From IMG/VR virus record IMGVR_UViG_3300048918_000192, positions 1 through 63,913 of that record: a stretch of 63,913 nt of DNA; one strand, given 5' to 3'. The notes beneath the pieces are model-generated. The model did not search any database. It had not been told where the DNA came from and worked only from the letters and a program-made list of their open reading frames with translations. This DNA comes from a virus. Within the stretch, counting starts at the first letter, position 1. Every line of letters begins with the position of its first letter. Of the stretch, positions 10,395 to 38,965 are shown one piece after another. The position numbers were made by a program, and so were the translations under genes.

Positions 10395-10408
10395 GGAGAT
10401 AGAGTATT

Positions 10409-10882
10409 ATGGCAAGGGGTAGGACTTACGCCGTTTCGTTCGCAGGCATCTCGGTGGCTGCGATACAAGACCTTCTCGCGGTCTACTGCGGCGGGTCCAT
10501 GGCAATCGAACTGCATGGTCTAGTGATCGGTCAGATTACTGGCGCCACCGTGCAGAACATGCGCATCTCGGTCAAGCGGCTCTCCGCTACCGTGACATCG
10601 GGCTCGGGTGGCGCTACTGCGTCTCCGCAGAAAATGGTCCGCGGTGATGCGGGTGCAACGGTCACCGCTCGTGTAAATGATACGACCCAAGCTACGACCT
10701 CGGGTACGACCGCCAATATCCTTCAGGACGTGTACAACATCGTCAACGGCTATCAACTGTTCTGGCCGCCAGACGACCGTCCAACTATTGGCCTTAGCGA
10801 GGCTGCTGTGGTCAGTCTGGACACTGCTCCTGGCAGCGCCCTCCTGATGAACGGTACGCTCTACTTCGCTGAGATCCTCTAA
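10409..10882 (+). CDS. Tail-associated protein (unknown)
   Basis: 157 aa with GGGAGA upstream of the ATG. It lies inside the tail-fiber block. Confidence 0.5.
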   Translation: MARGRTYAVSFAGISVAAIQDLLAVYCGGSMAIELHGLVIGQITGATVQNMRISVKRLSATVTSGSGGATASPQKMVRGDAGATVTARVNDTTQATTSGTTANILQDVYNIVNGYQLFWPPDDRPTIGLSEAAVVSLDTAPGSALLMNGTLYFAEIL

Positions 10883-11997
10883 TGACCGTCCGCATCTACA
10901 AGTCGACGGACGCTAGCGCTCCCGTCCTCACCGGGCAGACAGGCTCGCTTGTCGCCTTGCTTGATGCTATCCTCGTTAACGGATACGGCGCGATAACGGC
11001 GGCGGGGTGGACCAAGGCGTTCTCAGCGACGAACAAAGCTGCTTATCGGCAGAACGCAACAGGCGCGAACAATACCGCGAATCCGATGTACATATACGTC
11101 GATGATACGGGGCCCGGCGCTGGTTCGTCAAGAGAGGCTCGCGTTTGCGGCTTCGAAACTATGTCAGCTATCACGCCGACGGGTACGGGGCAGTTTCCGA
11201 CCAGTGGGCAGTCTGGCACGACCGTCACCGGCGGGTATCTTGTCTGCCGTAAGTCTGCAACCGCGGACGCTACTGCGCGTCAATGGACGTGTATCGCTAA
11301 CGGTCAGACGTTTTATCTCTTTATTGAATCCGGCGACGTAGCTGTTCCGCTTGCTTGCACGACTATGAGCTTCGGCGACTTTAAGTCGTTCAAAGTCAAC
11401 GACCTATATGCCGTATTTATCATGGCGCGGACTACGGAGAACCAAGCCGGCGGCAACTATGATTCGATGGGCGCTACAAGTCACGGTCAAACTAACGGCA
11501 ATATCAACACGCTTAACGCTGGTCTGCCAGGGCACTATATCGCACGACATTGGACTGGCGTCGGCGGTTCTGTCAAATGGGGCAAGCCGGTCGACTGGAG
11601 TCGGTTCCTCAGTTGGGGCTCACAGGGCGGTATGTGGGGGAACTATTCCAACGATACGCAAACTCAGTTCGCTCCTGTAAACGGTCCGAACTCTGCACTC
11701 GGACGTTATCACGTCGGTGTTTCAACCCCGCTTTGGCCCGCACCGAATGGACCAGATGGTTCACTAGCGCTCGCTCCCGTTTGGGTCGGCCACAGCAATG
11801 CCCTTCGCGGTTATCTGCCAGGACTGTGGTGCCCGATGCACGATCGACCGCTTAACCATCTCGACGCCTTTACCGTTGTAGGCGGGAACATGAACGGTAA
11901 GTCACTTATCGGCCTAAATATCCAAGCCTACATTAACGGTGCTCCGCTTGCTGAGAACGGACAGGTGATTGTGGAGTATTCGGACACCTGGAGCTAA
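10882..11997 (+). CDS. Tail-tip/fiber protein, paralog 3 of the 3057/3993 family
   Basis: 371 aa with a TAATG overlap. It shares LVALLDAILVNGYG...AAGW and WTCIANGQTFYLFI...SFGDF with the two genes after the tape measure. Confidence 0.55.
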   Translation: MTVRIYKSTDASAPVLTGQTGSLVALLDAILVNGYGAITAAGWTKAFSATNKAAYRQNATGANNTANPMYIYVDDTGPGAGSSREARVCGFETMSAITPTGTGQFPTSGQSGTTVTGGYLVCRKSATADATARQWTCIANGQTFYLFIESGDVAVPLACTTMSFGDFKSFKVNDLYAVFIMARTTENQAGGNYDSMGATSHGQTNGNINTLNAGLPGHYIARHWTGVGGSVKWGKPVDWSRFLSWGSQGGMWGNYSNDTQTQFAPVNGPNSALGRYHVGVSTPLWPAPNGPDGSLALAPVWVGHSNALRGYLPGLWCPMHDRPLNHLDAFTVVGGNMNGKSLIGLNIQAYINGAPLAENGQVIVEYSDTWS

Positions 11998-14058: not shown

Positions 14059-16284
14059 TTACTTGGCATCTTCTGGAGGGATTGCGCCAATGTCCCTCAA
14101 GATCCGGACAGACTCAGTAATATACCAATCGTAATCGATATCCACGGGAGGCGTGTCAGGTAGGACCATACAGGGTTTCGCACCCTCCGAGCGTGGGACT
14201 TTGTTGCCTGACTTGGCATAAACGAGCTCCCCTTGCACCTCGGTCGAGTAGTACCAGCGCACAGGGTTGCCGATGTACTCTGTTTCTCCGGGCAAGCGTG
14301 TAAGGTCTTTGGCGAGGTCATAAGCGACGTGTAGATAACGAGCGTCGCGCAACGTCTCCCCTTCGAGCACCCATGAGTTCTTAGCGATTTCGTAGAACCC
14401 CGCCATCTTGACCAGCTCTTCTGGCGTCTCGTGATCGGGTGGCACCTGTCCCCATACTTTGACCGCGCCACCGCTGGCACTGCGGACGGACACAAACTTA
14501 GTGAAGTCCTGCTCGGACCGGATAGTGTGGTCAATCGGGGTCTGCTTAATCAGGAATTGCTCGACCGCTTCAACGCAGATAGTAGTTGTCGGATTCTTGT
14601 GCAGACGTTCAGCAAGGTTCTTCTTACTCGACCAAGGATTGGCATAAGCCCCTTTGTTCTTGGTCCCCGAGGGTTGTTCGAGCCAAGTGACAGAGCCGTC
14701 TGGATTCTTTTGTTCGGTCTGCTTAACGGCAATGTAGTTATTGACGTCGCGGGAGTAGAGTGCGAGGTAACGGGTTTCTTCGGTCGGGAATTTTGTGTCA
14801 TCTTCCCACTCCTTAACGATTGCGTCCATAACGTGCATCATCGTGCGCGGGCACTTAATGACGATTCCGTCCGTATTGGCGCTGACCACACGGATGCCAG
14901 CCATCTCCAGTCGCTCAATCAGCATAAGCAAGGACAGCTGACCCGTTACCGTTGTCTGGATTAGTCCGTCAGGCGCATATAGGATGGAATACTTGCTGCC
15001 CTGCTTTCCAAACCATCCGTTGACAACGATCTTGAGGGAGTCGGCCACTGGCTTGTTGCCAGCCTTCTTAGCTGTGATGCGACGATCAACGATGCTGCGA
15101 TAAATCTGTAGCGCGACAGGTCCAAGGGCGGGCGGATAAAGCCCACAGTTAAGGATGATGAAGGGGTAGTAGCTCGTGACGTCAATGTCCCGTAGCACAT
15201 AGTCTTTGTCCGTGTAGTGCGCGGTCGACTGTTCACTTGAGTGCAGACCGCCAATACCCATCCGATAAACGGCACCATTGATGTCGAGCGCAAGAGCACT
15301 AACCTCCTCAGGCATTATGATGGAGCCATGTTCGCCCACGATGAAACGGGCGCGCTCGATAACGGTGAGGGCCCACTGCATGAGCGGGGACCGGAACTTA
15401 ACGAAGGCGGGCGTTTTGTAGAAGTAAGTCGTGCCTACAGGGATGCTAATCTTTTCAGGCTTGCTCCCTGTACGCTTCTTAATCTCCTCCACAATAACCG
15501 CTTCAGCGATCTGCGCGTCCGACTTGCTACGAAGGTCGATCTTGTACTCGTTGGAGAGCGTGTAGCGAAGCTCAATCTGTTCGTTGAGGCATTCACGTAG
15601 GAGCTTCGTGTTGGCTGTATCGTTGCAGCAATACCAGCGGACGATGGCGCGCTGCTCAGCAGATAGGAACGTGCTTGGGTGAAACGGCAAGTTCTGCATC
15701 TTATGCGCGTGGAGGCGACCAGCATACGTCTTAAGCGAGGCGAACAGCGGCGCGACTTCAATAAGGTCAATGTGGTCAACCTTTAGCGCCTTCGCTTTCG
15801 CTTTGCGCCTGATGTCCTGACCGCGAATTTCCTCAATAATGATTTGGTCGCTAGCGGTCTTGAGCGCTGTGCAATCAGCACCGGCTACAGCCATCTCGTT
15901 AATAGGCAAGTCGTAGTTGATACCGTTGAAGGTAACGATGGTGAACGACTCAAGCAGCCATTGGAGCTTGCGCGTGTCAAGCGGGTGACCGTCGTACATC
16001 TCCACAAACGCAATCTTGCCGGTGACAAGGTTTGTGAACACTGACAGGAAGTAGTTCGGATAAACTTCGGTGTCCTGCAAGAACTCCTGCTTCTCCATGC
16101 GGGCAGTGATAAGCTCCTGCATCGTCATTATTTCGACGGGGAACCTCAGCGCTTCTTCGAGCCCAGGCAGGTAGTCTGGACGTAACCACACTGGCTCCGG
16201 TGGTTGCCGCTTTTCCTTCTCCTTCTTAGGAGGTTTCGGCGGAGGGGTGTCGTCCCAAAAGAATCCGACTGCGTCGTTACGCAT
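14059..16284 (-). CDS. DNA polymerase, family B with 3'-5' exonuclease domain
   Basis: 741 aa. Exonuclease motifs are DTE (ExoI), FNGINYDLP (ExoII) and YCCND (ExoIII). Polymerase motifs are DIDVTSYYPFII (motif A), KIVVNGWFGK (motif B) and SANTDGIVI (motif C). Confidence 0.8.
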   Translation of the reverse strand: MRNDAVGFFWDDTPPPKPPKKEKEKRQPPEPVWLRPDYLPGLEEALRFPVEIMTMQELITARMEKQEFLQDTEVYPNYFLSVFTNLVTGKIAFVEMYDGHPLDTRKLQWLLESFTIVTFNGINYDLPINEMAVAGADCTALKTASDQIIIEEIRGQDIRRKAKAKALKVDHIDLIEVAPLFASLKTYAGRLHAHKMQNLPFHPSTFLSAEQRAIVRWYCCNDTANTKLLRECLNEQIELRYTLSNEYKIDLRSKSDAQIAEAVIVEEIKKRTGSKPEKISIPVGTTYFYKTPAFVKFRSPLMQWALTVIERARFIVGEHGSIIMPEEVSALALDINGAVYRMGIGGLHSSEQSTAHYTDKDYVLRDIDVTSYYPFIILNCGLYPPALGPVALQIYRSIVDRRITAKKAGNKPVADSLKIVVNGWFGKQGSKYSILYAPDGLIQTTVTGQLSLLMLIERLEMAGIRVVSANTDGIVIKCPRTMMHVMDAIVKEWEDDTKFPTEETRYLALYSRDVNNYIAVKQTEQKNPDGSVTWLEQPSGTKNKGAYANPWSSKKNLAERLHKNPTTTICVEAVEQFLIKQTPIDHTIRSEQDFTKFVSVRSASGGAVKVWGQVPPDHETPEELVKMAGFYEIAKNSWVLEGETLRDARYLHVAYDLAKDLTRLPGETEYIGNPVRWYYSTEVQGELVYAKSGNKVPRSEGAKPCMVLPDTPPVDIDYDWYITESVRILRDIGAIPPEDAK

Positions 16285-17243
16285 TACATCCGCATTCCGA
16301 TAATGGCTCCGCGCACCCGCTCGCCGAAGAACAGCGCTGGCTCGGGGTACAGGGCGAAGTCCGCGGTATGCGCTACGCCATTCAGCAGACCTAGCATGGC
16401 GATGTTATAGCAACCGTCAAAGTCGATATCGTCGACCTCGTATGTGCCGCCGGTGAAGTCCTCTGTGTGGGTCCGTAGCAGCCCGTTATTGATGTACACG
16501 CGGCTTGCTCCGTCTGCGATGCGCTGAAGCACCTCAATACCCGTAAAGAGCTCAGGCGGGATAGCTTTGGCGTTGCACGGCTTGTTGAGGATGTCCGTCA
16601 TCTTTTCGAACGGCCAGTCCCCTTGCAGAAGTTGGCTCCGTATCCAGCGCCCGTCCGTATAGTGGAAGGTGATCGAACGGTCGTGTAGCTGCGCATGAGT
16701 AGGCGCTTCGTCGACCCGCAGAATCTCGTTGACGCAATAGCGCGGCAAGTTCACTTGGAACGGGACAGGTGTACCGATCCAGTATTCGATAAGACAGGCG
16801 TTGTTCGTAGCGAAGGCTGAGTGCCCTTGGAACAGGATGCCGTTTGCCCATGGCCGTGATGCATCGTTACCGATAAACGGCTGTAGCGTCTTACACGCTG
16901 CGAGCAGCTCCTCACCGTTAAATTGGATTGGCTCACCTTCGGGTAGCGGGTGGACGGTCTCACCTTCGATCGTTTCGACGAACGCACGGAACCGACCGCT
17001 CTCAATACGCAAGCGCCCGCCAGCAGTCATGCTGAGCGTGATAGCTTCCTCGCATTGCTGAATTGCTTTGACAAGCTGGACCGCTTTCGGGTTGCAGTCG
17101 ATATCGAACGCTATTGGGCTGCTGATAGCCATCTGCCCGTTGAAGCTGCGGACGTGCCCGCCTTCGATACGAAAGTGCGTCATAGCGGGCAGCAAGTCCT
17201 TCTTACCGACCGCACCCTGTACGAACTTGAGGTCCTTGAGCAT
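16284..17243 (-). CDS. DnaN-like beta sliding clamp
   Basis: 319 aa. It aligns by eye with E. coli DnaN blocks: ANGILFQ...ATNNACLIEY to LNGMLFE...ATDGHRLA, VNLPRYCVNEILRV, SQLLQGDWPFEKM, and the C-terminal AIIGMRM to VVMPMRL. Confidence 0.75.
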   Translation of the reverse strand: MLKDLKFVQGAVGKKDLLPAMTHFRIEGGHVRSFNGQMAISSPIAFDIDCNPKAVQLVKAIQQCEEAITLSMTAGGRLRIESGRFRAFVETIEGETVHPLPEGEPIQFNGEELLAACKTLQPFIGNDASRPWANGILFQGHSAFATNNACLIEYWIGTPVPFQVNLPRYCVNEILRVDEAPTHAQLHDRSITFHYTDGRWIRSQLLQGDWPFEKMTDILNKPCNAKAIPPELFTGIEVLQRIADGASRVYINNGLLRTHTEDFTGGTYEVDDIDFDGCYNIAMLGLLNGVAHTADFALYPEPALFFGERVRGAIIGMRM

Positions 17244-18196
17244 TACTGAAGCATCCCATAAAGGTCTTGCTGTTTACCCTCAAGGTAACAAGCGCGACGG
17301 CGTTCATCCATTATCTTATTGATTTCACCGAACGCCCAAAGGTTGAAGGCAGCGCGGGACTCGTAGACCTCTCCTACTCGTTCATAGTCGAAGCCATAGC
17401 GCTCAAGCAGTCCAAAGACAAAGTCCTTCTCTGGTTCGCTGAGGGTAGTGATATGCTGGCCCCAATCGTGCCGACTAGGGGACTTGGTTGAGACAGCGAT
17501 TGGCCAAGCAGGGTTGGAGGTGCTAGCTCCTGGCATAACGATAGACCCAAAGGCAGCAGACTGAATCCATGAAGAGGAGTCGCAGGAGTACCAATCGAAC
17601 TCCTCCATAAGTGGAACCGCTGTGATACCGAATCCATGAACTTTAATCTTAGCGCGCCCGGATCCATCCAGTAGATGATTCTCCCAAACTCGCTCAAGCC
17701 AATTCCGAAGTTGCGCCGTAGACGCGCCGACCATGCCTCCGAGCGTAATGTACTCATAGTTCGCCACGTAGTAATCGAGGTAGCGGGAGTCCTCTTCGAA
17801 GTGGAAACAGGGTAATGGCCGAACACCTCGTGCCTCCATTTCAAGTTGGTTGCGATATGTCTTAAGTGGGTCGCCGATACCGTCCAACACCGACGCCATA
17901 AGGATGCCGTCTTCCTTGCGAATGATATCCTCGTTCTTTTGGATGTACTCGCAATACTCCCGCACCGATAACTCAACGCCCAAGGTGTACGCCGAGAACG
18001 CACCAGAGTCGAGGAAGATCTGCGCTCCGTTGCGGCGCATGTGGTCAACGAACGACTGCTTACCTACATAGTGCCACGACTCGAGGATGTGCGGGAGACC
18101 CATGAGGATCTCCCGTTCCCGTTCGTTCAATTTGACGTAGCGGTTCATTCCCTCCGGATAACTATTGGAGTAGACCGCGGCCATGTAGATGTGCAT
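17243..18196 (-). CDS. dpdA: DpdA-like DNA guanine transglycosylase (TGT superfamily)
   Basis: 317 aa. The blocks IFLDSGAFSAY, ITLGGMVGAS, KVHGFGIT and YSCDSSSW resemble conserved TGT/DpdA regions. It is adjacent to the preQ0 genes. Confidence 0.7.
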   Translation of the reverse strand: MHIYMAAVYSNSYPEGMNRYVKLNEREREILMGLPHILESWHYVGKQSFVDHMRRNGAQIFLDSGAFSAYTLGVELSVREYCEYIQKNEDIIRKEDGILMASVLDGIGDPLKTYRNQLEMEARGVRPLPCFHFEEDSRYLDYYVANYEYITLGGMVGASTAQLRNWLERVWENHLLDGSGRAKIKVHGFGITAVPLMEEFDWYSCDSSSWIQSAAFGSIVMPGASTSNPAWPIAVSTKSPSRHDWGQHITTLSEPEKDFVFGLLERYGFDYERVGEVYESRAAFNLWAFGEINKIMDERRRACYLEGKQQDLYGMLQ

Positions 18197-18220
18197 GGGC
18201 TTACCCTAGCAGTTCGCTAG

Positions 18221-19114
18221 TTACCTCGCAAGCTGTAGAAACTCGGCACGAGCCGATGGTTCATCCTTGAACACCCCTCGAAGAGCGCTTGTGACAGTGT
18301 GATGTCCCTGCTGACAGACGCCCCGCGATTCCATGCAGAGGTGCCGTGCTTTGACCACAACGCCGCAGCCGAGCGGTTTCAGATGCTCCATGAGCGCATC
18401 CGCGACCTGAGCCGTTAGGCGCTCCTGCACCTGTAACCGACGAGCGTAGGCGTTCAGCACCCTGTTCAACTTGGACAAGCCGACAATCTTCTTGTCTGGC
18501 AAGTAAGCGATAGTCGCCGTGCCAAAGAAGGGCGCCATGTGATGCTCGCAGTGCGTATAGAACGGGATGTCCTTGACGACCACCATTTCGTCGCAGCCCT
18601 CAGCGCCGTCCTCGAACGTTTTGAGCAGAGCACCGATGTCTTGGTCGTATCCGCTACACCAGAACGCCCAGGCTTTGGCGACGCGAGCAGGAGTCTCTTC
18701 GAGCCCGCCGCGTTCGGGGTTCTCTCCAATGAACTGGAGCAGGCGACGGATGTTGTCTTCGATACCACCGACGCTGTCGCCTTCCCACGGCCACACGACC
18801 CAATCCTCGCCGAACGCCCAGTTCCGCTTATCGATGAGAGCGAAGAACGGTTTGTCTCCGAACTTCTCCTTCGTCTTGCCGGTGTCGATAAGATCGTCGA
18901 AGATGAAGTCAGCTTCCAACGGGTTGTCGGTAAGCTCGAGCTTCATGTGCGCACGGTAGAGCGATAGCACTGCCGGCACCCCGCCGCGCGGGACAGGATA
19001 GACCGTTAAGTGCGTATCCACGATGCCGCGGTTCTTGAAGTACAGGCGAATTCGGTCGGCTGCGTCGTGCGCTAGCGCGGCGAGTTCTTTGTAGCTGATG
19101 ACTTGCGTTCCCAT
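18221..19114 (-). CDS. folE: Fusion of an XGPRT-like phosphoribosyltransferase domain and GTP cyclohydrolase I
   Basis: 297 aa. The N-terminal ~105 aa has VPRGGVP, the PRPP loop ADFIFDDLIDTGKT and DWVVWPWE (compare E. coli Gpt ...TWIEQPWD). The C-terminal part has FYTHCEHHMAPFFG, GLSKLNR and QVQERLT. Confidence 0.8.
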   Translation of the reverse strand: MGTQVISYKELAALAHDAADRIRLYFKNRGIVDTHLTVYPVPRGGVPAVLSLYRAHMKLELTDNPLEADFIFDDLIDTGKTKEKFGDKPFFALIDKRNWAFGEDWVVWPWEGDSVGGIEDNIRRLLQFIGENPERGGLEETPARVAKAWAFWCSGYDQDIGALLKTFEDGAEGCDEMVVVKDIPFYTHCEHHMAPFFGTATIAYLPDKKIVGLSKLNRVLNAYARRLQVQERLTAQVADALMEHLKPLGCGVVVKARHLCMESRGVCQQGHHTVTSALRGVFKDEPSARAEFLQLAR

Positions 19115-19575
19115 TAGTCCCTCGCGTAGATGGCGCTATTGCCGCCGTGCTCGCGCACCTCGACAGACATGATTTGGAGCCCTCGGGTATCGCACTCGAG
19201 GAAGTGTTCTTCGCCGAGCCAGTCGTCGACGTAATCGAAGACGTACTTGGCAAACGACTCGCATCCCACGCCAGGCAGGATGTTAATGAGGTCGAAGCCC
19301 CACTTGTTGTAGAGCGCGACGAAGTCAGGAAGGGCGGGGTCGTCCTGCGCGAGGATGGTGCGGTGGTCGAAGTTCTTGCACAACCACTCTTTGATTGGCT
19401 TGAGACCGCCGAAGTCGAGGACCCAATTATCCTTTGTGAGCTTGACCGCACCGAACGTGAGCTTGAAGCTCAACGGGTATCCGTGAGGGTCTTTGCAGTG
19501 CGACTCCGCACCAGGCTGGCGGAAGCAAGCGCTCAGGCCAAGGTTGTGGTCATAAGTCTTAGTGACGTAGTACAC
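19114..19575 (-). CDS. queD: 6-carboxytetrahydropterin synthase (QueD/PTPS family)
   Basis: 153 aa with a GTG start. The N-terminus KTYDHNLGLSACFRQ...HCKDPHGY fits a QueD-type fold. It lies between folE and queC. Confidence 0.7.
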   Translation of the reverse strand: MYYVTKTYDHNLGLSACFRQPGAESHCKDPHGYPLSFKLTFGAVKLTKDNWVLDFGGLKPIKEWLCKNFDHRTILAQDDPALPDFVALYNKWGFDLINILPGVGCESFAKYVFDYVDDWLGEEHFLECDTRGLQIMSVEVREHGGNSAIYARD

Positions 19576-20987
19576 TATTCGTTCCCTCCCTCATATTCGA
19601 TTACCTCTGGCAATCCGTTAATTCTGAATGCCGTGCGCCGCATATAGCACGGGCCGCACGTTCCGCAATGCTTGTCGCCAGCGCGATAGCAGCTCCACGT
19701 GAGGTGAAGCGGAGCATCAAGCTCAATACCCGCTGCAACAATCTCATGCTTCATAAGATTGCCGACGGGCATGATGACCTTCAGCTTCTTCCCGTCGCCG
19801 ATCGCAAATGGGAGCAGGTCGTTAAACCGTGCAATGAACTCAGGTTCGTTGTCCGGATAGGCGCCAGCTTCCTCGAGGTTGTTACCGAGGACCAGTGTGT
19901 CGAACCCATTGGCTTCGGCGTAAGCTGTGGCAAGCGATAGCATCACTAAGTTCCGCGCCGGAACCCATTCATAGGCGAACTCAGCGCCAGCTTCCCCTCC
20001 AGCTATGCGGTCGTCGGCACGGAGCAAAGGAGAATCATCTTGCCCATAGATAGCCATGGACTTAAAGACCACATCGACGCCCATAGCTTCAGCTACGTTG
20101 CGGATAGCATCTTGCTCGGGACCTTCAGCCCGGCTACCGTAGCGGAAATGGAGCAGCGTAACGTCGCACCCATTCGCTTTGACGTAGGCTGCCGCAACGA
20201 CGCTGTCCATGCCGCCGCTGCATACCACGAGCGCTCGCTGAGTCACCCTGTCGGGCGTGTCAAGCCTGTGCTTTAGCTCAGGAGTGAACAGCCAACAGCT
20301 ATATGGTTCGAGCATCTGCGGCACAAGGAACGTCGGAAAATAGTCCCGCGAGCTAGCAAAGAAGCATCCGTTAGTCGCTGCGGCGAACCATACAGGTCGA
20401 TAGTTACAGGCAACGAACATTGCGTCCGGATGGTCGTCATGTGTGGCTAGGATAGCGTAGCTGCCCTTGAGCTTAGCGATCTGCATCTGGAAATACTGAC
20501 CACAGCCATAGATGTCGGTTGCTCGGTCCTCGCTCGCAAGTAGCTCCGCGATTGCGGCGCTGTCAACCGTCGTAGGTAGGGCGACGAACTTCCGAGCACA
20601 TGCTTCGCGAAGCTCCCTGTCGTTTGCGATAGTTCCGTTATGAACGATGTTCCACTTGCCGGCGCGATAGGGTTGCTGGTCGAAGTCCCGCTTCGTCTCA
20701 ACATATTCGGTCGTCGGTTCAGCACGAGTATTGCCGATCATGACAGCGCTGTCCATTAACCGGAACGCATCGAAATAGTCGTTGGACTCCGGTCGCGACA
20801 TGCGTTCGGTCGATTTACGTTCGTAGTTCTGACCAGTTGTCTTAGCAGGACTTTCATGAACGTGGAAGCCCCATCCGTCTCGGCCACGTTCGAAGCTAGC
20901 GTTGAAGATATGCTCGAGGACGAAGTTTGCGCCCTTCACGGCGGACGGCGAAGCGCTCCAGATGAGCGCACCAAAGACAGAGCACAT
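19575..20987 (-). CDS. queC: Gat-QueC: class-II glutamine amidotransferase fused to 7-cyano-7-deazaguanine synthase
   Basis: 470 aa. The N-terminal MCSVFG has the Ntn catalytic Cys2. The C-terminal half has the PP-loop VVCSGGMDSVV and the zinc motif CGTCGPCYMR. Confidence 0.8.
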   Translation of the reverse strand: MCSVFGALIWSASPSAVKGANFVLEHIFNASFERGRDGWGFHVHESPAKTTGQNYERKSTERMSRPESNDYFDAFRLMDSAVMIGNTRAEPTTEYVETKRDFDQQPYRAGKWNIVHNGTIANDRELREACARKFVALPTTVDSAAIAELLASEDRATDIYGCGQYFQMQIAKLKGSYAILATHDDHPDAMFVACNYRPVWFAAATNGCFFASSRDYFPTFLVPQMLEPYSCWLFTPELKHRLDTPDRVTQRALVVCSGGMDSVVAAAYVKANGCDVTLLHFRYGSRAEGPEQDAIRNVAEAMGVDVVFKSMAIYGQDDSPLLRADDRIAGGEAGAEFAYEWVPARNLVMLSLATAYAEANGFDTLVLGNNLEEAGAYPDNEPEFIARFNDLLPFAIGDGKKLKVIMPVGNLMKHEIVAAGIELDAPLHLTWSCYRAGDKHCGTCGPCYMRRTAFRINGLPEVIEYEGGNE

Positions 20988-21703
20988 TATTCGACTCCTA
21001 CGACTTTGTGGATCTGGACCTGGAGGATGTAACCGAACAGTAGGCAGGACTTAACCGCCGCTGCGTTGTTCATCCTGTTCTTCTCGACATCCTGGCTGTC
21101 CATCGGTTGGACGTACACAGGTCTGTCCCAACCCTCGGGCGGTCGAGCAACCCAAGGGGACGCCGTGTGTTGGAGAGCTTGAAGCGGTAATCCGTCATCG
21201 AGACCAACATTACCGGCTTCGACAACGTACTTGAGCGCACATGCGCGGAACAGCGCATCAGGATGCACCTTGCCAGTCTTGGGACTGACAACCATGTACA
21301 CGCCAAATCGCTTTGTTGGATCCGTTGCCCACGGCAACCCGCCGATGGGCTGGAGGGTTCCGTTCGATTCGATCTGCACGAAGAAACCGTGCTCGTGAAG
21401 CTGCCAGCACAGTTCACGGATGTCCTGTCGAAACGGTTCGCCGCCTGTGATAACGACCAGTCCTTCCTTGCGGAGTTCCTGCACAGACGACAAAACGGCT
21501 TGCGCCGTCATCGAGGTTCGTTTGGAGGTGTAGTCCGTATCGCAGCCCGGGCATTGTAAGTTGCATCCGGTTAGGCGAACAAAGACACAGGGGAAACCGC
21601 AGAAGGGCCCTTCGCCCTGGATGGTTTCAAAGATGGAGTGAACGTGGAGAAGGCCGTCGGTTCTGAAGGCTCGCTTCTCGATTGGTTGGGTATTGATTGA
21701 CAC
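20987..21703 (-). CDS. queE: 7-carboxy-7-deazaguanine synthase (radical SAM)
   Basis: 238 aa with a GTG start. It has GCNLQCPGCDT (CxxxCxxC) preceded by ETIQGEGPF. Confidence 0.8.
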   Translation of the reverse strand: MSINTQPIEKRAFRTDGLLHVHSIFETIQGEGPFCGFPCVFVRLTGCNLQCPGCDTDYTSKRTSMTAQAVLSSVQELRKEGLVVITGGEPFRQDIRELCWQLHEHGFFVQIESNGTLQPIGGLPWATDPTKRFGVYMVVSPKTGKVHPDALFRACALKYVVEAGNVGLDDGLPLQALQHTASPWVARPPEGWDRPVYVQPMDSQDVEKNRMNNAAAVKSCLLFGYILQVQIHKVVGVE

Positions 21704-21774: not shown

Positions 21775-22323
21775 TTAGGCGTTCTCGGTCTGCTTGGCAG
21801 TCTGCTTCGCAGCAGCGGCCGCAGCCTTTTCATCCGCCTTCTTCTTTTCGGCAGCCGCCTTCTCCGCGAGCTTGCGCGGGTCTTCGACGCGACCGCTGAT
21901 GCCGAAGAACTTCCGCCAGCGAGCGTACTCGGCGCGGACGTTGGCTTCGTTCAGGCCCTGCGAACGAGCGACTTCCATCGACTCGCCGATCGACGCGGGA
22001 GCGCCGTTCTGCTTGCTGATGTCGTCGAAGATGGCCCACGCCTTGCCGCAGAGACCGTCCGGCTTCGGCCGGCGGATACCGTTCTGCTCCGGCATACGGG
22101 ACGCTTCACGCGCTGCGGCGGCTTCGTCCTTCTTGCGCTGGCGCTCGGCAGCTTCCGCCGCCTTCTTGTCCTCGCGAGCCTTAGCCGCGGCAGCCTTTTC
22201 GGCTTCCTTCTTGGCTTTGGCTTCCGCCTTTTCGGCGTCCTTGCGAGCCTTCTCGTCGGCTTTCGCCTTGTCGGCGGCGGCCTTTTCTGCGGCGATTTCT
22301 TCCGCAGTCTTCTCTTCTGCCAT
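21775..22323 (-). CDS. Lys/Ala-rich (histone-H1-like) protein with a central 'EQNGIRRP' domain
   Basis: 182 aa counted from the ATG 6 nt after GGAG (MAEEK...). KA/E-rich low-complexity arms flank PEQNGIRRPKPDGLCGKAWAIFD...YARWRKFFGISGR. This domain is paralogous to 39374..39778. Confidence 0.6.
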   Translation of the reverse strand: MAEEKTAEEIAAEKAAADKAKADEKARKDAEKAEAKAKKEAEKAAAAKAREDKKAAEAAERQRKKDEAAAAREASRMPEQNGIRRPKPDGLCGKAWAIFDDISKQNGAPASIGESMEVARSQGLNEANVRAEYARWRKFFGISGRVEDPRKLAEKAAAEKKKADEKAAAAAAKQTAKQTENA

Positions 22324-22394
22324 TTTCATCTCCGTTGTCCATGGGCGGACTATAAGGGGGCTAGCACTCCGCCCGTAACAATGCAAGCCCTTAT

Positions 22395-23117
22395 TTATGA
22401 GATACGACTTTTCATCCAGTTACCAAGCTCGTTACTCGAACTCGTGCGCTTGATGCTTTTCTCCGTCTCCAATCTGGCCATCATCTCCTTGCGTAGTGCG
22501 AGGACGACGTCCTTGTCGGTCGGCTTACCAGCCGCTTCCCACATTTCGTCTGCCACGGCCCAAATGGTGGGGCGAACGCTGTTCATGCGCGTAGCGGCGC
22601 TACGGGGCGGCATGGGGCGCGCTGCCGCCGGTGCCGCCGTTGGGGTAGCGCTGCGCACCTTGCGGCGCTGTGGGGCCCGTGTAGCGGCTTCCTGCGCTTC
22701 AATCGCGTTGAGCGGCGCTGTGTGTAAGTGGAACAGGTCTTCCTGCTTGGCTGGCTTGTTCGCTCCGAGCGCATAGGTGTACGCGATACCAGCGTAAAGG
22801 TCGTCTTCAACGGCTGCTACCTGTGCTTCAAGTTCGCTGAGACTTGCGTGAGCAGCTTTGAGCTTCTCCTCGACAAGTGTGGCCAGCATCTCCCTGACCA
22901 CAATATGCTCGGTCCCAGTGATGTCGAGGCCGGTCGTGTTCTTGTACAGCATCCGTAGATCTAACCCCGACATCTTAGCGAGGAAGAACTCACGGTCTGT
23001 ATTCTCTATCGTAACCGAATGACCTGGCATCTCCAGCCAAGCTAGGTGGCGCACCACCTCAGCGTCACGATGCTTGTGGACGAACTGTAGGTCGTCCATA
23101 TTGATGCTAACGTACAT
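22395..23117 (-). CDS. Hypothetical protein; C-terminus distantly resembles the 'EQNGIRRP' family domain
   Basis: 240 aa. The C-terminal RPTIWAVADEMWEAAGKPTDKDVV...NELGNWMKS parallels the C..VW..D...P...V...N..E..WRK pattern. Confidence 0.5.
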   Translation of the reverse strand: MYVSINMDDLQFVHKHRDAEVVRHLAWLEMPGHSVTIENTDREFFLAKMSGLDLRMLYKNTTGLDITGTEHIVVREMLATLVEEKLKAAHASLSELEAQVAAVEDDLYAGIAYTYALGANKPAKQEDLFHLHTAPLNAIEAQEAATRAPQRRKVRSATPTAAPAAARPMPPRSAATRMNSVRPTIWAVADEMWEAAGKPTDKDVVLALRKEMMARLETEKSIKRTSSSNELGNWMKSRIS

Positions 23118-23404
23118 CAGGCAGCTCGCAGAACGATTTGCGTGTTGGACATAGCCTTGAGGCGAGCGAACTCGTCCGGCATGATAAGCGGTTCGGCGCG
23201 CTTGAGAAGTTCTGGCGCGGTGAGCTGCTTCTCCGACAGACCACGAGCAGCGACCGCGAAAGCGTCAATGAGGCACTTCGCTTGATGGGCTTGCGGGTGG
23301 CGCGGACTAAGTGGCACAAACGTCTCGCTTGATGGGAATGAATCGGCTGCCTGAATGCGGATCTGACGAGCCGTACGGCGGATAAGAAAAAAGATCGGTT
23401 CCAT
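23117..23404 (-). CDS. Hypothetical protein
   Basis: 95 aa with TAAGGAG upstream of the ATG at 23404 and a promoter-like element just upstream. Confidence 0.5.
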   Translation of the reverse strand: MEPIFFLIRRTARQIRIQAADSFPSSETFVPLSPRHPQAHQAKCLIDAFAVAARGLSEKQLTAPELLKRAEPLIMPDEFARLKAMSNTQIVLRAA

Positions 23405-23425
23405 TTGACTGCTCCTTACCCGCGC

Positions 23426-23454
23426 ATTGTACTAAAAGGTCTGCTGATATGCAA
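23426..23454 (-). promoter_or_regulatory. Sigma70-like promoter (TTGCAT-N17-TACAAT) on the minus strand
   Basis: The reverse complement of 23449-23454 is TTGCAT and that of 23426-23431 is TACAAT, with a 17-nt spacer. It overlaps a near copy (AACGCTTGCA) of the recurring 10-mer. Confidence 0.55.
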
Positions 23455-23461
23455 GCGTTAT

Positions 23462-25312
23462 TTAGAACGGCACGTCGTCGTCCAGATCCGTGTCGAATGC
23501 CGCTACTCCAGTCGGTGGAGCAACGCGCGAATTGCTTACGCCTCGAACCTCAACGTCGGCAACGAACGGAGCGGAGTTTGGATCTTTGGTTCCGAACGAT
23601 GTTCCATCGTAGCAATAAGCCATAATCTCAGGATACGGTTTTCGATTTGTCCATATACGGAGCTCGGTAGGCATCTTAAGCTCGCTGATTCGAGCGATAG
23701 CTTCGGAGGTGCTAGCCGGTAGGGGCGTTCCTGCTCGTTCCTTCCAGATCTTGGCTGCTTTGCGACCAGCCCAGTCAGCGTGTTCGGGACAGAGGTATTC
23801 GCTCCAGGCTTTATATCCGGAATAGTAGGTAATCTTGACGCTAGGAGGCTTTCCGAGCTTGCGATGCTCGTCAACTGAGATATGGTCAACATGAAATACC
23901 TCCGTGATGGGCATTTCGCCCTTGATAAGGTCGTCGGTGCCGGAGTCCGCTTTGAACTTAACCTCGAACGTGAACTCGTTATCGCATTTCGCTCCGCTCG
24001 GTAGGATACCGTTGCACCATCTAAGGCTCGCGTGGACGTAGCACTCGCACTTCGGGCATTCCTTGACCGGCGCTGTACCTCCACCCTCACCCTTGCGGCG
24101 GGGAAGGACAGGGTCGTTCACAGGTCCGAGTCGTGCTGTGTTGCGGGCGTAGTCAAGCACAAGGCAGTCTTGCTTCGCGCTAGCTGCAATGGATGCAAGC
24201 CTACCGCCAATGTCGCTAAGGTTGAATCCTGGCATGTAGAGCGGTCGCGTACCACGGCCAAGCATCTGAACCCACAGCACAGAGGAAGCGGTTGCGCGAA
24301 GCACAATGATAAGGTCGATGCTAGGGTCGTCGAAGCCTGTGGTTAGCACATTGTTGTTCACGAGAGCAGTTAGCTCACCGCGGCGGAACGCTGCAATGGA
24401 CTCGTCTCGACCTGCTCGCTTGCTATGGACGACACCTGTAGGGACGCCGAACTGGTCGAGCATCTGTCCAATGTGGTCTGCATGGTCCACGCCGGACGCA
24501 AAGACCAGCCACTTACGACGGTTCTGCTCAGCAGCGATATGCATTGCTTCACGAATAGCAGCTTCAGTGATCTCATCTTTATCGAAGAGCTGTTGCATCT
24601 CCCCTTCGATATACTCGCCACCGCGGATATGCAGACTGTCCGTGCTCAACTCGAGCTTAGTCTTGCGCGGCACAAGTGGAAGCAGATACCCTTCAGCAAT
24701 GAGACGGTTGAATGCGTCCATCGTTGTGATGTCAAAGCAGACGTCTGTGAACAGCGGTGGAATCTCGTTCCCCTTGCTGTCGACCGATGGATCTGTAAGG
24801 TGACCGTGGCCGAGCCGCCAAGGGGTTGCAGTGAAGCCAACCACCTTCAGCAGCGGGTTCCGTGACCTCAGGCCGTTAAGAAACGAACGGTACATTGTCT
24901 GATCGTTAGGACTGAGCAAGTGTGCTTCGTCGATAAGCACAAGGTCAATATGACCGAACAGCGCCCACTTTTTCCAGACCGATTGTATGCCCGCAAAGGT
25001 GATAGGGCACATATGATTCTTTTCGCCGAGCCCTGCACTATAGATGCCAGCAGGACAGAACGGCCACAGAGCTAGAAGTTTCTCATAGTTCTGTTGGATG
25101 AGCTCCTTAACATGGGTTAGGAGCATGATTCGTTGCTGCGGATACGGTATATAGACCGACTGTAAGAACCGAGCGATGACCACACTCTTGCCCGTGCCAG
25201 TCGGCATCGCAATTAGCGGGTTTCCGCTTGCTCCTCGGAAGTAGTCCCAAATGGAGTTAACGGCTTCTGTCTGATAAGGGCGGTCTTGAAATCCGCCTAA
25301 CGGCACAGACAT
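23462..25312 (-). CDS. SF2 DEAH-box DNA helicase with a C-terminal zinc ribbon
   Basis: Walker A is MPTGTGKSV and the DEAH box is LIDEAHLL. The C-terminus has CPKCECYV...CDNEF. The start is set at the internal ATG that forms TAATG with the upstream stop. Confidence 0.75.
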   Translation of the reverse strand: MSVPLGGFQDRPYQTEAVNSIWDYFRGASGNPLIAMPTGTGKSVVIARFLQSVYIPYPQQRIMLLTHVKELIQQNYEKLLALWPFCPAGIYSAGLGEKNHMCPITFAGIQSVWKKWALFGHIDLVLIDEAHLLSPNDQTMYRSFLNGLRSRNPLLKVVGFTATPWRLGHGHLTDPSVDSKGNEIPPLFTDVCFDITTMDAFNRLIAEGYLLPLVPRKTKLELSTDSLHIRGGEYIEGEMQQLFDKDEITEAAIREAMHIAAEQNRRKWLVFASGVDHADHIGQMLDQFGVPTGVVHSKRAGRDESIAAFRRGELTALVNNNVLTTGFDDPSIDLIIVLRATASSVLWVQMLGRGTRPLYMPGFNLSDIGGRLASIAASAKQDCLVLDYARNTARLGPVNDPVLPRRKGEGGGTAPVKECPKCECYVHASLRWCNGILPSGAKCDNEFTFEVKFKADSGTDDLIKGEMPITEVFHVDHISVDEHRKLGKPPSVKITYYSGYKAWSEYLCPEHADWAGRKAAKIWKERAGTPLPASTSEAIARISELKMPTELRIWTNRKPYPEIMAYCYDGTSFGTKDPNSAPFVADVEVRGVSNSRVAPPTGVAAFDTDLDDDVPF

Positions 25313-26265
25313 TAGAAGTCGTCCGCTACTTTCCAGTCGGGACAAGCGACCTGTTGTTTCTCACGTGTCAATTCCATGTTGTGCTTATTGCATACCCAAG
25401 CGGCATTCGCAACAGGCTTGCTGAATTGACAGGTGCGACAGTTGATGGCAGGGGTTGCCCGCAAGTGGCAGACCGGACGATGGTCGCAGAAGCGGCACAA
25501 GAAGAAGCCAGGGCTTGGATTAATCTTGGTGGGCGCTGCTTCTAGCCATACCAGCTTGTCACCGCGGTCAATGAACTGATCTGCTATCTCAGGGTTGAGC
25601 GTTATCAGCTCCATGTACTGGTCGTCTGTGTTCTTGTTGACGGCAACGTACAGCGCCATCGTGTAGCCCATCTTACGCATGTAGATTTGCATCTGAACGT
25701 AGTGCTCGGGCTTAGCTGCTTTTACTCCTTTGCCTGTGAAGGAACCTTCTCCGCGAACGTAAGCTCGCCATTCAGGTAGCTTGCCAGCAAGTTCGACAAA
25801 TGACTTCTCCCCATGCGTCTTGCACTCAAGAACAAGACAGATCTCGGGGACATCAGGGATGCCAAGCGCCAACCCGTCTCCCGATCCACCAGCATGACCT
25901 TCGGCCCAAGAGATTTTGAACTGTTTGCCATTTGCATCCTGCTGCCAGACCTGCGCACCTATCATTAGAAGCTGCGCAATGATACGCCCTTCTTCGAGGT
26001 GCCCACGGTTAAAGAGACGGAGCAGACGACCGTCGAAATTGCTCTTGGTCGCCCAACGAAAGTTGTACCAGATAGAACGAGCGCACTCGCTACCCATCAG
26101 AGACGCGCCCATGTGCCCGCGGAAGCTCTCCTCTTCGGACCGATATGCGTCGCCGATGTGTGGTAACACACGCCCAAGCCATCCTCGGAACGAGGCGCCC
26201 TGATCAGCTTGTATCATGCTGTCAATCGCGCGCATCGTTTGAAGCGCGTGTGTTAGATGACCCAC
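25312..26265 (-). CDS. PD-(D/E)XK nuclease, Cas4/RecB-like with a Cys cluster
   Basis: 317 aa with a GTG start after GGAG. It has GSECARSIWY, LVLECKTHG (ExK), YVQMQIY and a C-terminal CRFCDHRPVC...CRTCQF. Confidence 0.65.
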   Translation of the reverse strand: MGHLTHALQTMRAIDSMIQADQGASFRGWLGRVLPHIGDAYRSEEESFRGHMGASLMGSECARSIWYNFRWATKSNFDGRLLRLFNRGHLEEGRIIAQLLMIGAQVWQQDANGKQFKISWAEGHAGGSGDGLALGIPDVPEICLVLECKTHGEKSFVELAGKLPEWRAYVRGEGSFTGKGVKAAKPEHYVQMQIYMRKMGYTMALYVAVNKNTDDQYMELITLNPEIADQFIDRGDKLVWLEAAPTKINPSPGFFLCRFCDHRPVCHLRATPAINCRTCQFSKPVANAAWVCNKHNMELTREKQQVACPDWKVADDF

Positions 26266-28970: not shown

Positions 28971-29290
28971 TCTTTGCCGAGCTCCTCTTTGAGCTGCTCC
29001 ACAATGCGTTCTAAGTCCGCAAAGCGAAGCAAGCCACCCTTGACGAAGGGCTTAATGTTATCGATGATATCGTCGAGCGACTGGTCGTAGTTCTTACCAG
29101 CCGTCTCCGCACGATAGTTGACGCAACCGATCTTGTGCGTACAGTCACAAGGGTCTGGATGCTCATGAACGTCGTCCAACGCATCGGTGAAGTCACCCAT
29201 CGTCGTGGCGGGAGTTCCGCGCTGTACTAGGATAGCAACGAGCTCCCCACGGAACAGGATTTCGTCACCAATACGTTGGACGTCTTGCAT
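28967..29290 (-). CDS. Hypothetical protein
   Basis: 107 aa with 4-nt overlaps on both sides. Confidence 0.5.
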   Translation of the reverse strand: MQDVQRIGDEILFRGELVAILVQRGTPATTMGDFTDALDDVHEHPDPCDCTHKIGCVNYRAETAGKNYDQSLDDIIDNIKPFVKGGLLRFADLERIVEQLKEELGKE

Positions 29291-38853: not shown

Positions 38854-38927
38854 CGGGCGCCCCCGCCCCGCGCAGTTTAACTCGCCTAGTTCGGTGTCCC
38901 AAATTGGTGCAAACTTTTTTGGAACTA

Positions 38928-38965
38928 TTCGCTTGCAATGGGTCCGCCATGCGTGTACCTATAAT
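38928..38965 (+). promoter_or_regulatory. TTCGCTTGCA motif plus TATAAT box upstream of the first rightward gene
   Basis: The 10-mer is at 38928-38937 and TATAAT at 38960-38965. The 22-nt spacing from CTTGCA is atypical. AAGGAG and an ATG follow at 38977 and 38989. Confidence 0.45.

Follow-up and report, generated by a model that had tools for sequence, protein, structure and literature searches.

Which base does the 7-deazaguanine gene cluster of this phage produce, and into which nucleic acid would it be placed? The cluster lies in a window of 63,913 nt (positions 1 to 63,913 of IMG/VR record IMGVR_UViG_3300048918_000192; GC 56%), the complete ~63.8-kb genome of a siphophage. At 17243–21703 on the minus strand, five consecutive, co-oriented genes encode DpdA, FolE, QueD, Gat-QueC and QueE, and every one of these ORFs was confirmed where the initial annotation had placed it. 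The motifs it had quoted (LDSGAFS, HGFG, SCDSSSW, CEHHMAPFFG, MCSVFG, SGGMDS and CNLQCPGCDT) are all present in the translations, and the zinc site reads CGTCGPC. Most of the genes overlap: the junctions among the five are 1-nt overlaps or one 24-nt gap, and they continue into the clamp and polymerase genes. Downstream of dpdA are a clamp-like processivity factor (16284–17243, minus strand; phrog_947 at 2e-71) and a DNA polymerase (14059–16284, minus strand; phrog_1252 at 4e-202), with a 1-nt overlap at each junction and the same order as in phage 9g. Upstream, also on the minus strand, are two conserved proteins of unknown function (21775–22386, phrog_18634; 22395–23117, phrog_7864) and an SF2 helicase (23462–25345, phrog_16); these partners (21775–25345) are homologous to 9g gp09/gp10, with their position unchanged. 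Since the junctions are near-continuous and promoter-like and terminator-like sites show no excess across the operon, it is fair to describe the module, flanked by the polymerase/clamp genes and the helicase gene, as lying inside the replication operon, as had been proposed.

DpdA (17243–18196, minus strand, 317 aa) is a DpdA1-type 7-deazaguanine DNA transglycosylase. A Pfam search returned no matches for it, and the NCBIfam DpdA profile matched only weakly (1e-4, 21 bits vs. a cut-off of 200). Despite the missing Pfam match, the DpdA/TGT-like identity proposed for this protein was upheld by phrog_887 (1.6e-83), by 67.5–68% identity to the experimentally validated DpdA of 9g, and by a TGT fold in the AF2 model (pLDDT 83.8). 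The best Foldseek match of the model was an archaeosine tRNA-guanine transglycosylase (E 2e-5, prob 1.0), the top matches being arcTGT (1j2b/1iq8), QTRT1 and bacterial TGT. Residues D63, S64, F67, D105, H132, G153, G154, F189 and D206 are all invariant in the alignment, and the same nine residues, with identical numbering, have been assigned for CAjan DpdA (PMC7544227). The alignment check suggested earlier for the catalytic aspartates thus found D63 and D206 in place, together with the complete CAjan residue set.

The assignments of the other four genes also held, with profile matches well above what chance would give. FolE (18221–19114, minus strand, 297 aa) has an N-terminal Gpt-like domain and a C-terminal GTP cyclohydrolase I domain (aa 118–297, 18221–18763; PF01227 at 3.9e-70) that scores 240 bits with NCBIfam FolE, above the cut-off of 174. 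Foldseek aligned this catalytic domain to GCH-I from T. thermophilus, M. tuberculosis and human at 48–51% identity and a target TM of ~0.9, and the zinc-site residues C189/H191/H192/C260 are invariant. The QueD-like CPH4 synthase (19114–19575, minus strand, 153 aa) matches PF01242 at 7e-15, its 55.5 bits exceeding the cut-off of 22.4, and phrog_2389 at 1.9e-35. Its NCBIfam QueD score does not reach the equivalog cut-off, and its closest PDB match is the CPH4 synthase 7v0f (1.7e-3). It belongs to a non-canonical 'YGH..FRQ..SHC...HGY' lineage in which HGY replaces HGH and two of the three histidines that canonically ligate zinc have been lost, with C27, H31, D70-H71 and E142 retained. Of 76 related clusters, 32 carry this lineage, as does phage Iggy, the DNA of which contains dPreQ0.

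Gat-QueC (19575–20987, minus strand, 470 aa; phrog_10428 at 2e-201) is 53% identical to its 9g counterpart over 99% of its length. Its N-terminal class-II glutamine amidotransferase domain (aa 1–240, 20268–20987) matches GATase_6 at 1.6e-9 and GATase_7 at 4.4e-9, and its QueC domain (aa ~248–470, 19575–20246) matches PF06508 at 2.4e-52. Across 52 phage Gat-QueC sequences, M1-C2, R34-G38, H116-N117-G118 and D142 of the Gat domain are invariant; in the QueC domain the same holds for the PP-loop (S257-G-G-x-D-S262) and for the zinc cysteines (C433/C441/C444/C447). QueE (20987–21703, minus strand, 238 aa), a radical-SAM 7-carboxy-7-deazaguanine synthase, matches Radical_SAM and phrog_2076 (6e-55); its top NCBIfam matches are all QueE families, yet fall below the equivalog cut-offs. 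It carries the cluster motif CNLQCPGC and is 50% identical to 9g QueE, which complements E. coli ΔqueE (PMC6884629).

The first 117 residues of FolE (18764–19114) lie outside every Pfam and NCBIfam FolE match. When a profile was made of 43 homologues of this mini-domain, xanthine-guanine phosphoribosyltransferase (XGPRT) structures ranked first (E 1.6e-3 to 5e-3), and 19 of the 43 match PF00156. Alignment to E. coli Gpt by hhalign covered Gpt residues 1–141 with 96.4% probability (E 1.3e-9), and the domain was modeled with a pLDDT of 87–97. Loop I (VxRGG) and PRPP loop III (DDLxDTGxT) are kept, as are a Lys and a Trp equivalent to Gpt K115 and W134, and P42, G45, D73, D74, D77, G79, T81, K96, W105, P109 and W110 are invariant. 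The PRPP- and purine-binding residues are retained. The phage domain differs from Gpt in being fused to FolE and ~35 residues shorter, with the hairpin of the catalytic flexible loop II (Gpt ~58–80) and a segment at ~117–126 deleted. The fusion is found in 33 of the 76 related clusters, and we found no published description of it. For this domain, a guanine-type ligand or PRPP would be the most plausible binding partner. We favor a salvage role, in which the guanine that DpdA releases would be recycled toward GTP, and a role in nucleotide-sensing regulation appears about equally likely.

Palindrome usage offers a view of the predicted modification at the level of the genome. Thirteen hexamer palindromes are strongly depleted genome-wide, none of which contains GA or GGC (Fisher p 8e-4), and GA is the best discriminating dinucleotide under three background models. 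The target motifs of DpdA1 enzymes have been mapped to GA in Iggy and to GA and GGC in CAjan. In 9g the avoidance is likewise GA/GGC-exempt (p 7e-4), with seven purged sites common to both genomes. The signature is weaker in Iggy, where GGC-containing sites are purged too, in keeping with GA-only targeting, and it is weak in CAjan (p 0.077) despite the experimentally mapped motifs. It was absent from unmodified phage T1, the single genome that served as negative control. Over 68 related loci, GA palindromes have an O/E of 0.95–1.0 vs. 0.54–0.65 for other G-containing palindromes. The signature supports, in silico, GA-directed protection, and Queuovirinae are known to withstand type I/II restriction-modification systems in vivo (PMC8594841). 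The initial annotation had mentioned neither this signature nor the Gpt-like domain and the non-canonical QueD.

We consider it probable that the five genes form a 9g/Queuovirinae-type, post-replicative DNA hypermodification module that yields dG+, is GA/GGC-selective and shields the DNA from restriction. FolE, QueD and QueE would convert GTP to 7-carboxy-7-deazaguanine, from which the QueC half of Gat-QueC would make preQ0. By a TGT-like double displacement, with D206 as the putative nucleophile and D63 as the putative acid/base, DpdA would remove guanine from double-stranded phage DNA and insert the deazaguanine base. No QueF, QueF-L, ArcS or other tailoring gene was found in the window, so Gat-QueC is the sole candidate for the last step: its Gat half would supply the ammonia that converts the nitrile group to archaeosine's formamidine, before or after base insertion, to give dG+. 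We infer the identity of the base from homology, and the target motif with the further support of the avoidance signature. By analogy with 9g, the base is most likely archaeosine (dG+), replacing part of the guanine; the modified G would most likely be that in GA and probably that in GGC, together 24–31% of all G. Sites so modified would be shielded from restriction, the remaining palindromic sites would have been purged from the genome, and the module would be co-transcribed with the replication genes.

The pairing of Gat-QueC with dG+ rather than dPreQ0, as given in the initial annotation, agrees with the literature: with 9g genes in E. coli, Gat-QueC gave dG+ and plain QueC gave dPreQ0 (PMC6884629), and the pairing has been reported again (PMC10484667, PMC8594841). 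An active pathway might still leave mainly dPreQ0 (or dADG) in the virion, if the Gat domain were inefficient or amidotransfer failed with this DpdA. The 9g genes do yield dPreQ0 in E. coli when Gat-QueC is expressed lower than DpdA (PMC6884629), several phages carry 7-deazaguanine mixtures, and the avoidance signature, being equally strong in QueC-only relatives, cannot separate the two bases. Against this, none of the 52 sequences, that of the window included, departs from the Cys2 nucleophile, the H116-N117-G118 oxyanion-hole residues or D142; such conservation argues for a functional amidotransferase, and 9g Gat-QueC with DpdA gave dG+ almost exclusively (PMC6884629). We regard a dPreQ0 outcome as rather unlikely.

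The fused domain suggests another route, in which a phosphoribosyltransferase would take a deazapurine (preQ0, CDG or G+) as its substrate, as in toyocamycin or tubercidin synthesis, to provide a pre-replicative dGTP analogue for the polymerase, or a free nucleotide. Enzymes of the same PF00156 family belong to CDG-using, tubercidin-type 7-deazapurine nucleoside clusters (bioRxiv 10.64898/2026.04.15.718813), the PRPP loop and purine-contacting Lys and Trp are present, and the window encodes two MazG-like pyrophosphatases. However, the domain lacks catalytic loop II, 43 of the 76 clusters, otherwise equivalent, do without the fusion, and no kinase or reductase that could take a ribonucleotide to the dNTP level was found in the window. 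DpdA is moreover present with its catalytic residues intact, and modification in CAjan requires DpdA; this makes the route distinctly improbable. That the cluster modifies RNA instead, placing queuosine- or archaeosine-type bases in host or phage tRNA, might be supposed from the origin of all five enzyme families in tRNA queuosine/archaeosine pathways and from the tRNA-guanine transglycosylase that best matches the DpdA model. Yet the nearest sequence relatives are DNA-modifying DpdA1 enzymes, and 9g dpdA failed to complement E. coli Δtgt (PMC6884629). The protein, at 317 aa, lacks the C-terminal tRNA-binding domains, whereas the matched arcTGT structures have ~576 aa; an Rfam scan of the window returned no RNA families and hence no tRNA; and the genome-wide GA/GGC exemption points to an effect on DNA. 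We give RNA modification hardly any credence.

How does the module compare with known systems? It is an ordinary new representative of the Queuovirinae-type kit, known since 2016–2019 and present in hundreds of phages; its two undescribed features are the Gpt-like domain fused to FolE, the main point of interest, and the unusual QueD. In 9g (Nonagvirus), the prototype dG+ coliphage, whose protein functions have been established by genetics and LC-MS (PMC6884629), the order is the same: polymerase, clamp, DpdA, FolE, QueD, Gat-QueC, QueE, two unknowns, helicase, Cas4 exonuclease and SSB. Catalytic residues are shared, and FolE is 60% identical. The 9g FolE, however, has 204 aa and no Gpt-like domain, its QueD is canonical (HGH) and undetectable by tblastn with the QueD of the window, an extra hypothetical gene separates Gat-QueC and QueE, and the genome has a GC of 44% with no nucleotide-level similarity. 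The Pseudomonas phages NP1, PaMx25, JG012 and Quinobequin-P09 (Nipunavirus, Queuovirinae), for which we found no published measurement of modification, share the 297-aa FolE with its Gpt-like domain and, among cultured phages, match best in Gat-QueC (56–57%) and DpdA (70%). NP1 differs in its canonical HGH QueD and in the homing endonuclease that separates FolE from DpdA. The closest cultured relative overall is Sphingomonas phage vB_StuS_MMDA13 (63.7 kb), similar in genome size, with a DpdA 70–71% identical, a long FolE (N-terminal domain 53% identical) and an HGY-type QueD (71%), but with plain QueC and a separate QueF-like protein in place of Gat-QueC.

Escherichia phage CAjan and Pseudomonas phage Iggy share the DpdA1 family and its pocket and catalytic residue numbering, and their mapped targets agree with the site classes exempt from avoidance here. 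In both, QueC stands without a Gat domain, FolE is short and the modified base is dPreQ0, in contrast to the dG+ predicted for the window, and CAjan has a YhhQ-like preQ0 transporter. The bacterial Dpd system (DpdA/DpdB/DpdC of Salmonella Montevideo), in which the DpdA mechanism is established (PMC10164549), shares the transglycosylation chemistry, the catalytic Asp pair and the GGM backbone contact to the 7-substituent. Its sequence similarity is only remote. The phage has neither the DpdB ATPase partner nor DpdC, and no CxCxxC...H zinc motif can be seen in phage DpdA. The level of modification differs as well, being very low with bacterial Dpd and reaching about 30% of G with phage DpdA1.

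The five genes lie on the minus strand at 17243–21703, exactly where the initial annotation had placed them, and the motifs it had quoted are all present in the translations. Profile searches matched the FolE, QueD/PTPS, QueC, class-II glutamine amidotransferase (GATase) and QueE families, in agreement with the proposed gene identities. From QueE the operon runs through Gat-QueC, QueD, FolE and DpdA into the clamp and the polymerase, and neighbouring genes either overlap by 1 nt or stand 24 nt apart. These tight junctions, together with a lack of enrichment of promoter-like or terminator-like sites across the operon, justify the earlier description of the module as being inside the replication operon. 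The remaining early region encodes a Cas4-type exonuclease, SSB, Sak4, ligase, thymidylate synthase (29290–29940, minus strand), RNase H, MazG-like pyrophosphatases, primase and RusA. Two genes for MazG-like nucleoside-triphosphate pyrophosphohydrolases are found at 31522–32199 (minus strand) and 45508–46008 (plus strand). Searches of the window for nucleotide kinases and PRPP synthetase returned none; to be complete, a phage-encoded route from guanine to GTP would need guanylate kinase, NDP kinase or PRPP synthetase, and none of the three was seen. The window also contained no preQ1 riboswitch or any other Rfam family. Public calls disagree on the start codon of the helicase at 23462–25345 (554 vs. 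616 aa).

The window comes from a JGI metagenome. Its first 127 nt are identical to nt 63787–63913, an assembly overlap, and permuted 63,816-nt contigs of the same phage occur in two other samples (SRR35925705 and SRR35925602). It is therefore a complete genome, ~63,786 bp long, that assembles as a circle. Among 50,697 phage records there was no close nucleotide relative. The genome contains two copies of a domain of unknown function (phrog_18634/11298/21588) with homology to the C-terminal part of 9g gp09. One copy, at 21775–22386 (minus strand), adjoins QueE and lies within a Lys/Ala/Glu-rich protein; the gene at this position is annotated as a transcriptional activator in CAjan and Iggy. 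The other, at 38894–39778 (plus strand), makes up the C-terminal end of a protein in which an endonuclease-VII-like segment is also present.

DpdA was the weakest point of the initial argument, and a DpdA/TGT-family match with intact catalytic residues was the test set for it. The protein had no match in Pfam, matched the NCBIfam DpdA equivalog at 1e-4 only, and matched phrog_887 (1.6e-83), annotated as queuine tRNA-ribosyltransferase. Searches against solved structures, with the single sequence or a profile, reached no TGT or DpdA. An hhalign comparison with E. coli Tgt gave a non-significant probability of 3.5%, and its sole aligned segment was the catalytic LDSGAFS/TDSGGFQ. The identity is nevertheless settled by three observations. 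Over its full length the protein is 67.5–68% identical to the experimentally validated DpdA of 9g, and it is 57–71% identical to the DpdA of JenP1/2, NP1, MMDA13, Vid5, CAjan-like phages and Iggy. The AlphaFold2 model (pLDDT 83.8) has a TGT-type TIM-barrel fold, with archaeosine TGT (1j2b/1iq8; E 2e-5 and 8e-5, probability 1.0), human QTRT1 and bacterial TGT as best matches. In CAjan DpdA, the nucleophile is Asp206 and the base Asp63, and the pocket is formed by Ser64, Phe67, Asp105, His132, Gly153, Gly154 and Phe189 (Kot et al., PMC7544227). All nine residues occupy identical positions in our protein and are invariant in alignments of 29 and 43 sequences, so that both catalytic aspartates which the initial annotation had wanted aligned, D63 and D206, are in place. 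The corresponding aspartates of Salmonella DpdA are essential by mutagenesis (PMC10164549). With the 9g identity, the fold and the pocket residues all in agreement, the DpdA/TGT assignment on which the earlier proposal hinged is upheld.

TGT and bacterial DpdA carry a structural zinc site, CxCxxC...H, after the nucleophile. This is absent from our protein, where the stretch from D206 to residue ~300 is free of cysteine and only H243 and H248 are conserved. The validated 9g DpdA likewise lacks the motif. Its absence distinguishes the DpdA1 clade from both of these groups, and is not evidence against membership of DpdA1.

Gat-QueC begins with MCSVFG and matches the GATase_6/7 Pfam families, identifying an Ntn-type class-II amidotransferase domain. 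M1, the Ntn nucleophile C2, the oxyanion-hole residues H116-N117-G118 and D142 are invariant in 52 phage sequences, as are the PP-loop S257-G-G-M-D-S262 and the zinc cysteines C433/C441/C444/C447 of the QueC part. The QueC domain matches PF06508 at 2.4e-52 and scores 130.7 against the NCBIfam QueC equivalog, under its cut-off of 150.3; the protein matches phrog_10428 at 2e-201 over residues 1–467. It is collinear with the validated 9g Gat-QueC (53% identity, 99% length coverage). When expressed alone in E. coli, 9g DpdA inserts dPreQ0 at ~0.3% of G, while DpdA and Gat-QueC together yield dG+ at 9–18% of G, and 9g Gat-QueC can stand in for QueC (Hutinet et al., PMC6884629). The literature links Gat-QueC with dG+ (PMC6884629, PMC10484667). 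Because the protein is collinear with its 9g counterpart and all catalytic residues are present, dG+, the base predicted in the initial annotation, is the best available prediction for the final base of this phage. We looked in the window for QueF, QueF-L, ArcS, a 9g gp07 homologue or another tailoring gene and found none. Our literature search found no base measurement for any phage that joins a long FolE with Gat-QueC.

QueE is a radical-SAM protein (phrog_2076, 6e-55) with the Cx3Cx2C cluster motif present as CNLQCPGC. Its top five NCBIfam matches are all QueE models, each under the equivalog cut-off (best 89 vs. 200), and it shares 50% identity with the QueE of 9g, which has been functionally validated. 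QueD is less typical. It matches PF01242 (55.5 bits, cut-off 22.4; 7e-15) and phrog_2389 (1.9e-35), while scoring 34.3 against the equivalog TIGR03367, for which the cut-off is 89.25. The canonical QueD zinc triad, a histidine in "xxHRx" plus "HGH", is not found; in its place the window protein carries "ACFRQ" and "HGY", so that two of the three canonical zinc-ligand histidines are replaced, as they are in MMDA13. C27, D70-H71 and the C-terminal E142 have aligned counterparts in the QueD of 9g and of E. coli, and the cysteine and His31 align with PDB 7v0f. The HGY lineage keeps another set of histidines, in "YGH", "SHC" and "HGY" (H10, H26 and H31). A tblastn search with 9g QueD, which complemented an E. 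coli ΔqueD strain (PMC6884629), did not match the window. Iggy has an HGY-type QueD as in the window, and its DNA contains dPreQ0 as verified by LC-MS (PMC10484667). HGY is the sole QueD type in 32 of 76 related clusters. It is probably functional, although this falls short of proof because hosts carry their own QueD. It makes up a second lineage of QueD, one whose metal site is rearranged and which is swapped freely with the canonical type among relatives. For the gene itself (19114–19575), public start calls differ between 119 aa (JGI) and 153 aa (Logan); the shorter call is probably wrong since the longer form holds the conserved YDH/SACFRQ N-terminal segment.

In the proposed pathway, FolE would convert GTP to H2NTP, QueD would form CPH4, QueE CDG, and the QueC domain preQ0. 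DpdA alone would then exchange the base into DNA, with amidation to G+ by the Gat domain before or after insertion. For close homologues, the literature documents these pathway steps and also protection, both in vitro and in vivo, against type I/II restriction.

We asked whether the genome itself carries a trace of this modification. The mapped DpdA1 motifs are GA and GGC in CAjan (PMC7544227) and GA in Iggy. In the window, 24.3% of all G are in a GA context and 31.1% in GA or GGC, close to the modification levels of 25–32% measured for 9g and CAjan. Strong depletion affects 13 hexamer palindromes of the window, and none of the 13 contains GA or GGC. Nine of these, AAGCTT (34 expected), GCATGC (27 expected), ACCGGT, GGTACC, GTGCAC, ACATGT, GTATAC, TACGTA and AGTACT, have zero copies where 7–34 are expected. 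Among palindromes that do contain GA or GGC, 0 of 22 are strongly depleted (Fisher p 8e-4; Mann–Whitney p 5e-5). An unbiased scan of the ten dinucleotide classes ranked GA/TC first under Markov-1, -2 and -3 backgrounds. The AT-only palindromes TTATAA, AATATT, TTTAAA, AAATTT and TAATTA are also absent from the window.

The same avoidance pattern is seen in 9g (p 7e-4), with seven purged sites in common with the window. For Iggy, GA ranked first and GGC-containing sites are purged, as expected of a GA-only enzyme, whereas in CAjan the signature is weak (p 0.077). In contrast, the unmodified lytic coliphage T1 has purged GA/GGC sites like any others, and GA ranks 9–10 of 10; T1 is the single negative control, and the site classes compared are small. 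When 68 de-replicated relatives were pooled, GA palindromes in each of the three pathway classes had an observed/expected ratio of 0.95–1.0, compared with 0.54–0.65 for the remaining palindromes that contain G. The signature does not separate dG+ from dPreQ0 phages. The phage relies on site avoidance at palindromes without GA or GGC. For those that contain them, the pattern is consistent with GA-directed, and probably GGC-directed, protection relieving selection on such sites, and it gives indirect support to the predicted exchange of guanine for 7-deazaguanine in DNA. From it we infer GA, with or without GGC, as the DpdA target. The open-access papers we searched contained no description of a deazaguanine-linked palindrome signature. 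Palindrome avoidance may allow a DpdA target motif to be read from sequence alone, a cheap prediction for uncultured phages both of the motif and of the restriction enzymes that should still cut.

FolE has a component that 9g, CAjan and Iggy lack. The protein is 297 aa long, and its GTP cyclohydrolase I (GCH-I) domain covers residues 118–296 only. This domain is genuine: FolE matches PF01227 (4e-70) and the NCBIfam models NF006825 (240 bits, cut-off 174) and TIGR00063 (221, cut-off 181.6), Foldseek aligns it with solved GCH-I structures at a target TM of ~0.9 and 48–51% identity, and the zinc ligands C189, H191, H192 and C260 are invariant. Residues 1–117 (18764–19114, minus strand) form a mini-domain with profile homology to Gpt, the xanthine-guanine phosphoribosyltransferase (XGPRT) of E. 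coli, a 6-oxopurine enzyme of the type I phosphoribosyltransferase (PRTase) family. The homology is visible only with profiles. The window copy alone had no match in a permissive Pfam scan, single-sequence phmmer against the PDB found nothing, a fold search with the full-length FolE model returned only GCH-I matches, and a word-index homologue search found nothing with the domain alone but worked with full-length FolE. A 43-sequence profile, however, had XGPRT chains as its top matches in the PDB, PF00156 (Pribosyltran) is matched by 19 of the 43 homologues, and hhalign aligned the domain with residues 1–141 of E. coli Gpt (96.4% probability, E 1.3e-9).

The invariant residues of the domain, VPRGG in loop I, D73-D74-L-I-D77-T-G79-K-T81 in loop III, K96 and W105, align with their Gpt counterparts. 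K96 and W105 correspond to Gpt Lys115 and Trp134, which we take to be the O6-contacting and base-stacking residues. In PRTases, loop I serves PPi, and the loop III acidic pair with xDxGxT is the PRPP motif (PMC6783271). The flexible loop II, which shuts the active site during catalysis, is absent: the Gpt hairpin at ~58–80 has no counterpart in FolE 1–117, and in the model the two strands are joined by only 8 residues at this place. For this reason we call the domain Gpt-like rather than a PRTase.

The domain is conserved in all of the best 120 metagenomic FolE homologues and is found in 34 cultured-phage records, namely MMDA13, the NP1/PaMx25/JG012/Quinobequin group, and phages of Xanthomonas, Stenotrophomonas, Variovorax and Vibrio. 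When 1.84 billion representatives were searched exhaustively, the family grew to 325 clusters. Among the best 150 of these, the domain is fused to FolE in 57 (in one case with an intein) and occurs without FolE in 93, many of the latter being complete proteins of 100–170 aa. In a 583-aa metagenomic fusion (P0245), an intein with an HNH endonuclease splits the FolE domain. On a related viral contig (L059, 5922–6997) the Gpt-like domain is a separate ORF directly upstream of a short FolE; either the gene has been split here, or this is the ancestral arrangement before fusion. No description of a FolE–PRTase fusion was found in the open-access literature.

We compared 76 viral loci having DpdA, FolE, QueC and QueD. 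Gpt-FolE is present in 33 of them: 23 of 52 with Gat-QueC, 5 of 14 with plain QueC and 5 of 10 with QueC and QueF-L. Both HGH and HGY QueD are found with every component combination, and neither Gpt-FolE nor the QueD type correlates with the last-step enzyme. Gpt-FolE is commoner at higher GC (median 55% vs. 48%). Since the components combine freely, a role of the Gpt-like domain would concern the early steps that all pathway variants share (GTP, guanine and FolE) and not the final base.

Two such roles seem about equally plausible. With 24–31% of 36,017 G exchanged, ~9,000–11,000 GTP would be consumed and as many guanines released per genome copy; this number of freed guanines, and the tether to a GTP-consuming enzyme, make guanine salvage to the GTP pool sensible. 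A sensor of guanine nucleotides, PRPP or (p)ppGpp that gates the first committed step is made plausible by the missing loop II and by the fact that (p)ppGpp and PRPP share this pocket in HPRT and XGPRT (PMC6783271). Our tentative proposal, held with rather less than even confidence, is that the Gpt-like domain is a functional and previously undescribed sixth component acting in one of these two ways, drawn from a family of loop-II-less mini-PRTases spanning the 325 clusters. If true, salvage would close a guanine-to-deazaguanine recycling loop that feeds FolE. The presence of the domain on FolE in ~40% of related clusters, including those of cultured Pseudomonas, Xanthomonas, Stenotrophomonas, Sphingomonas and Vibrio phages, suggests that phages manage the guanine/GTP economy of a modification in which between a quarter and a third of their G is exchanged.

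The core finding by itself changes little. Gpt-FolE, the alternative QueD and the palindrome read-out are modestly interesting and can be tested in cultured relatives such as NP1 and MMDA13. Enterobacteria phage 9g has exactly the same gene order, and this order is conserved across the Queuovirinae (PMC10484667). To a specialist the module is unsurprising, being one more uncultured, higher-GC environmental case of a well-characterised anti-restriction system.
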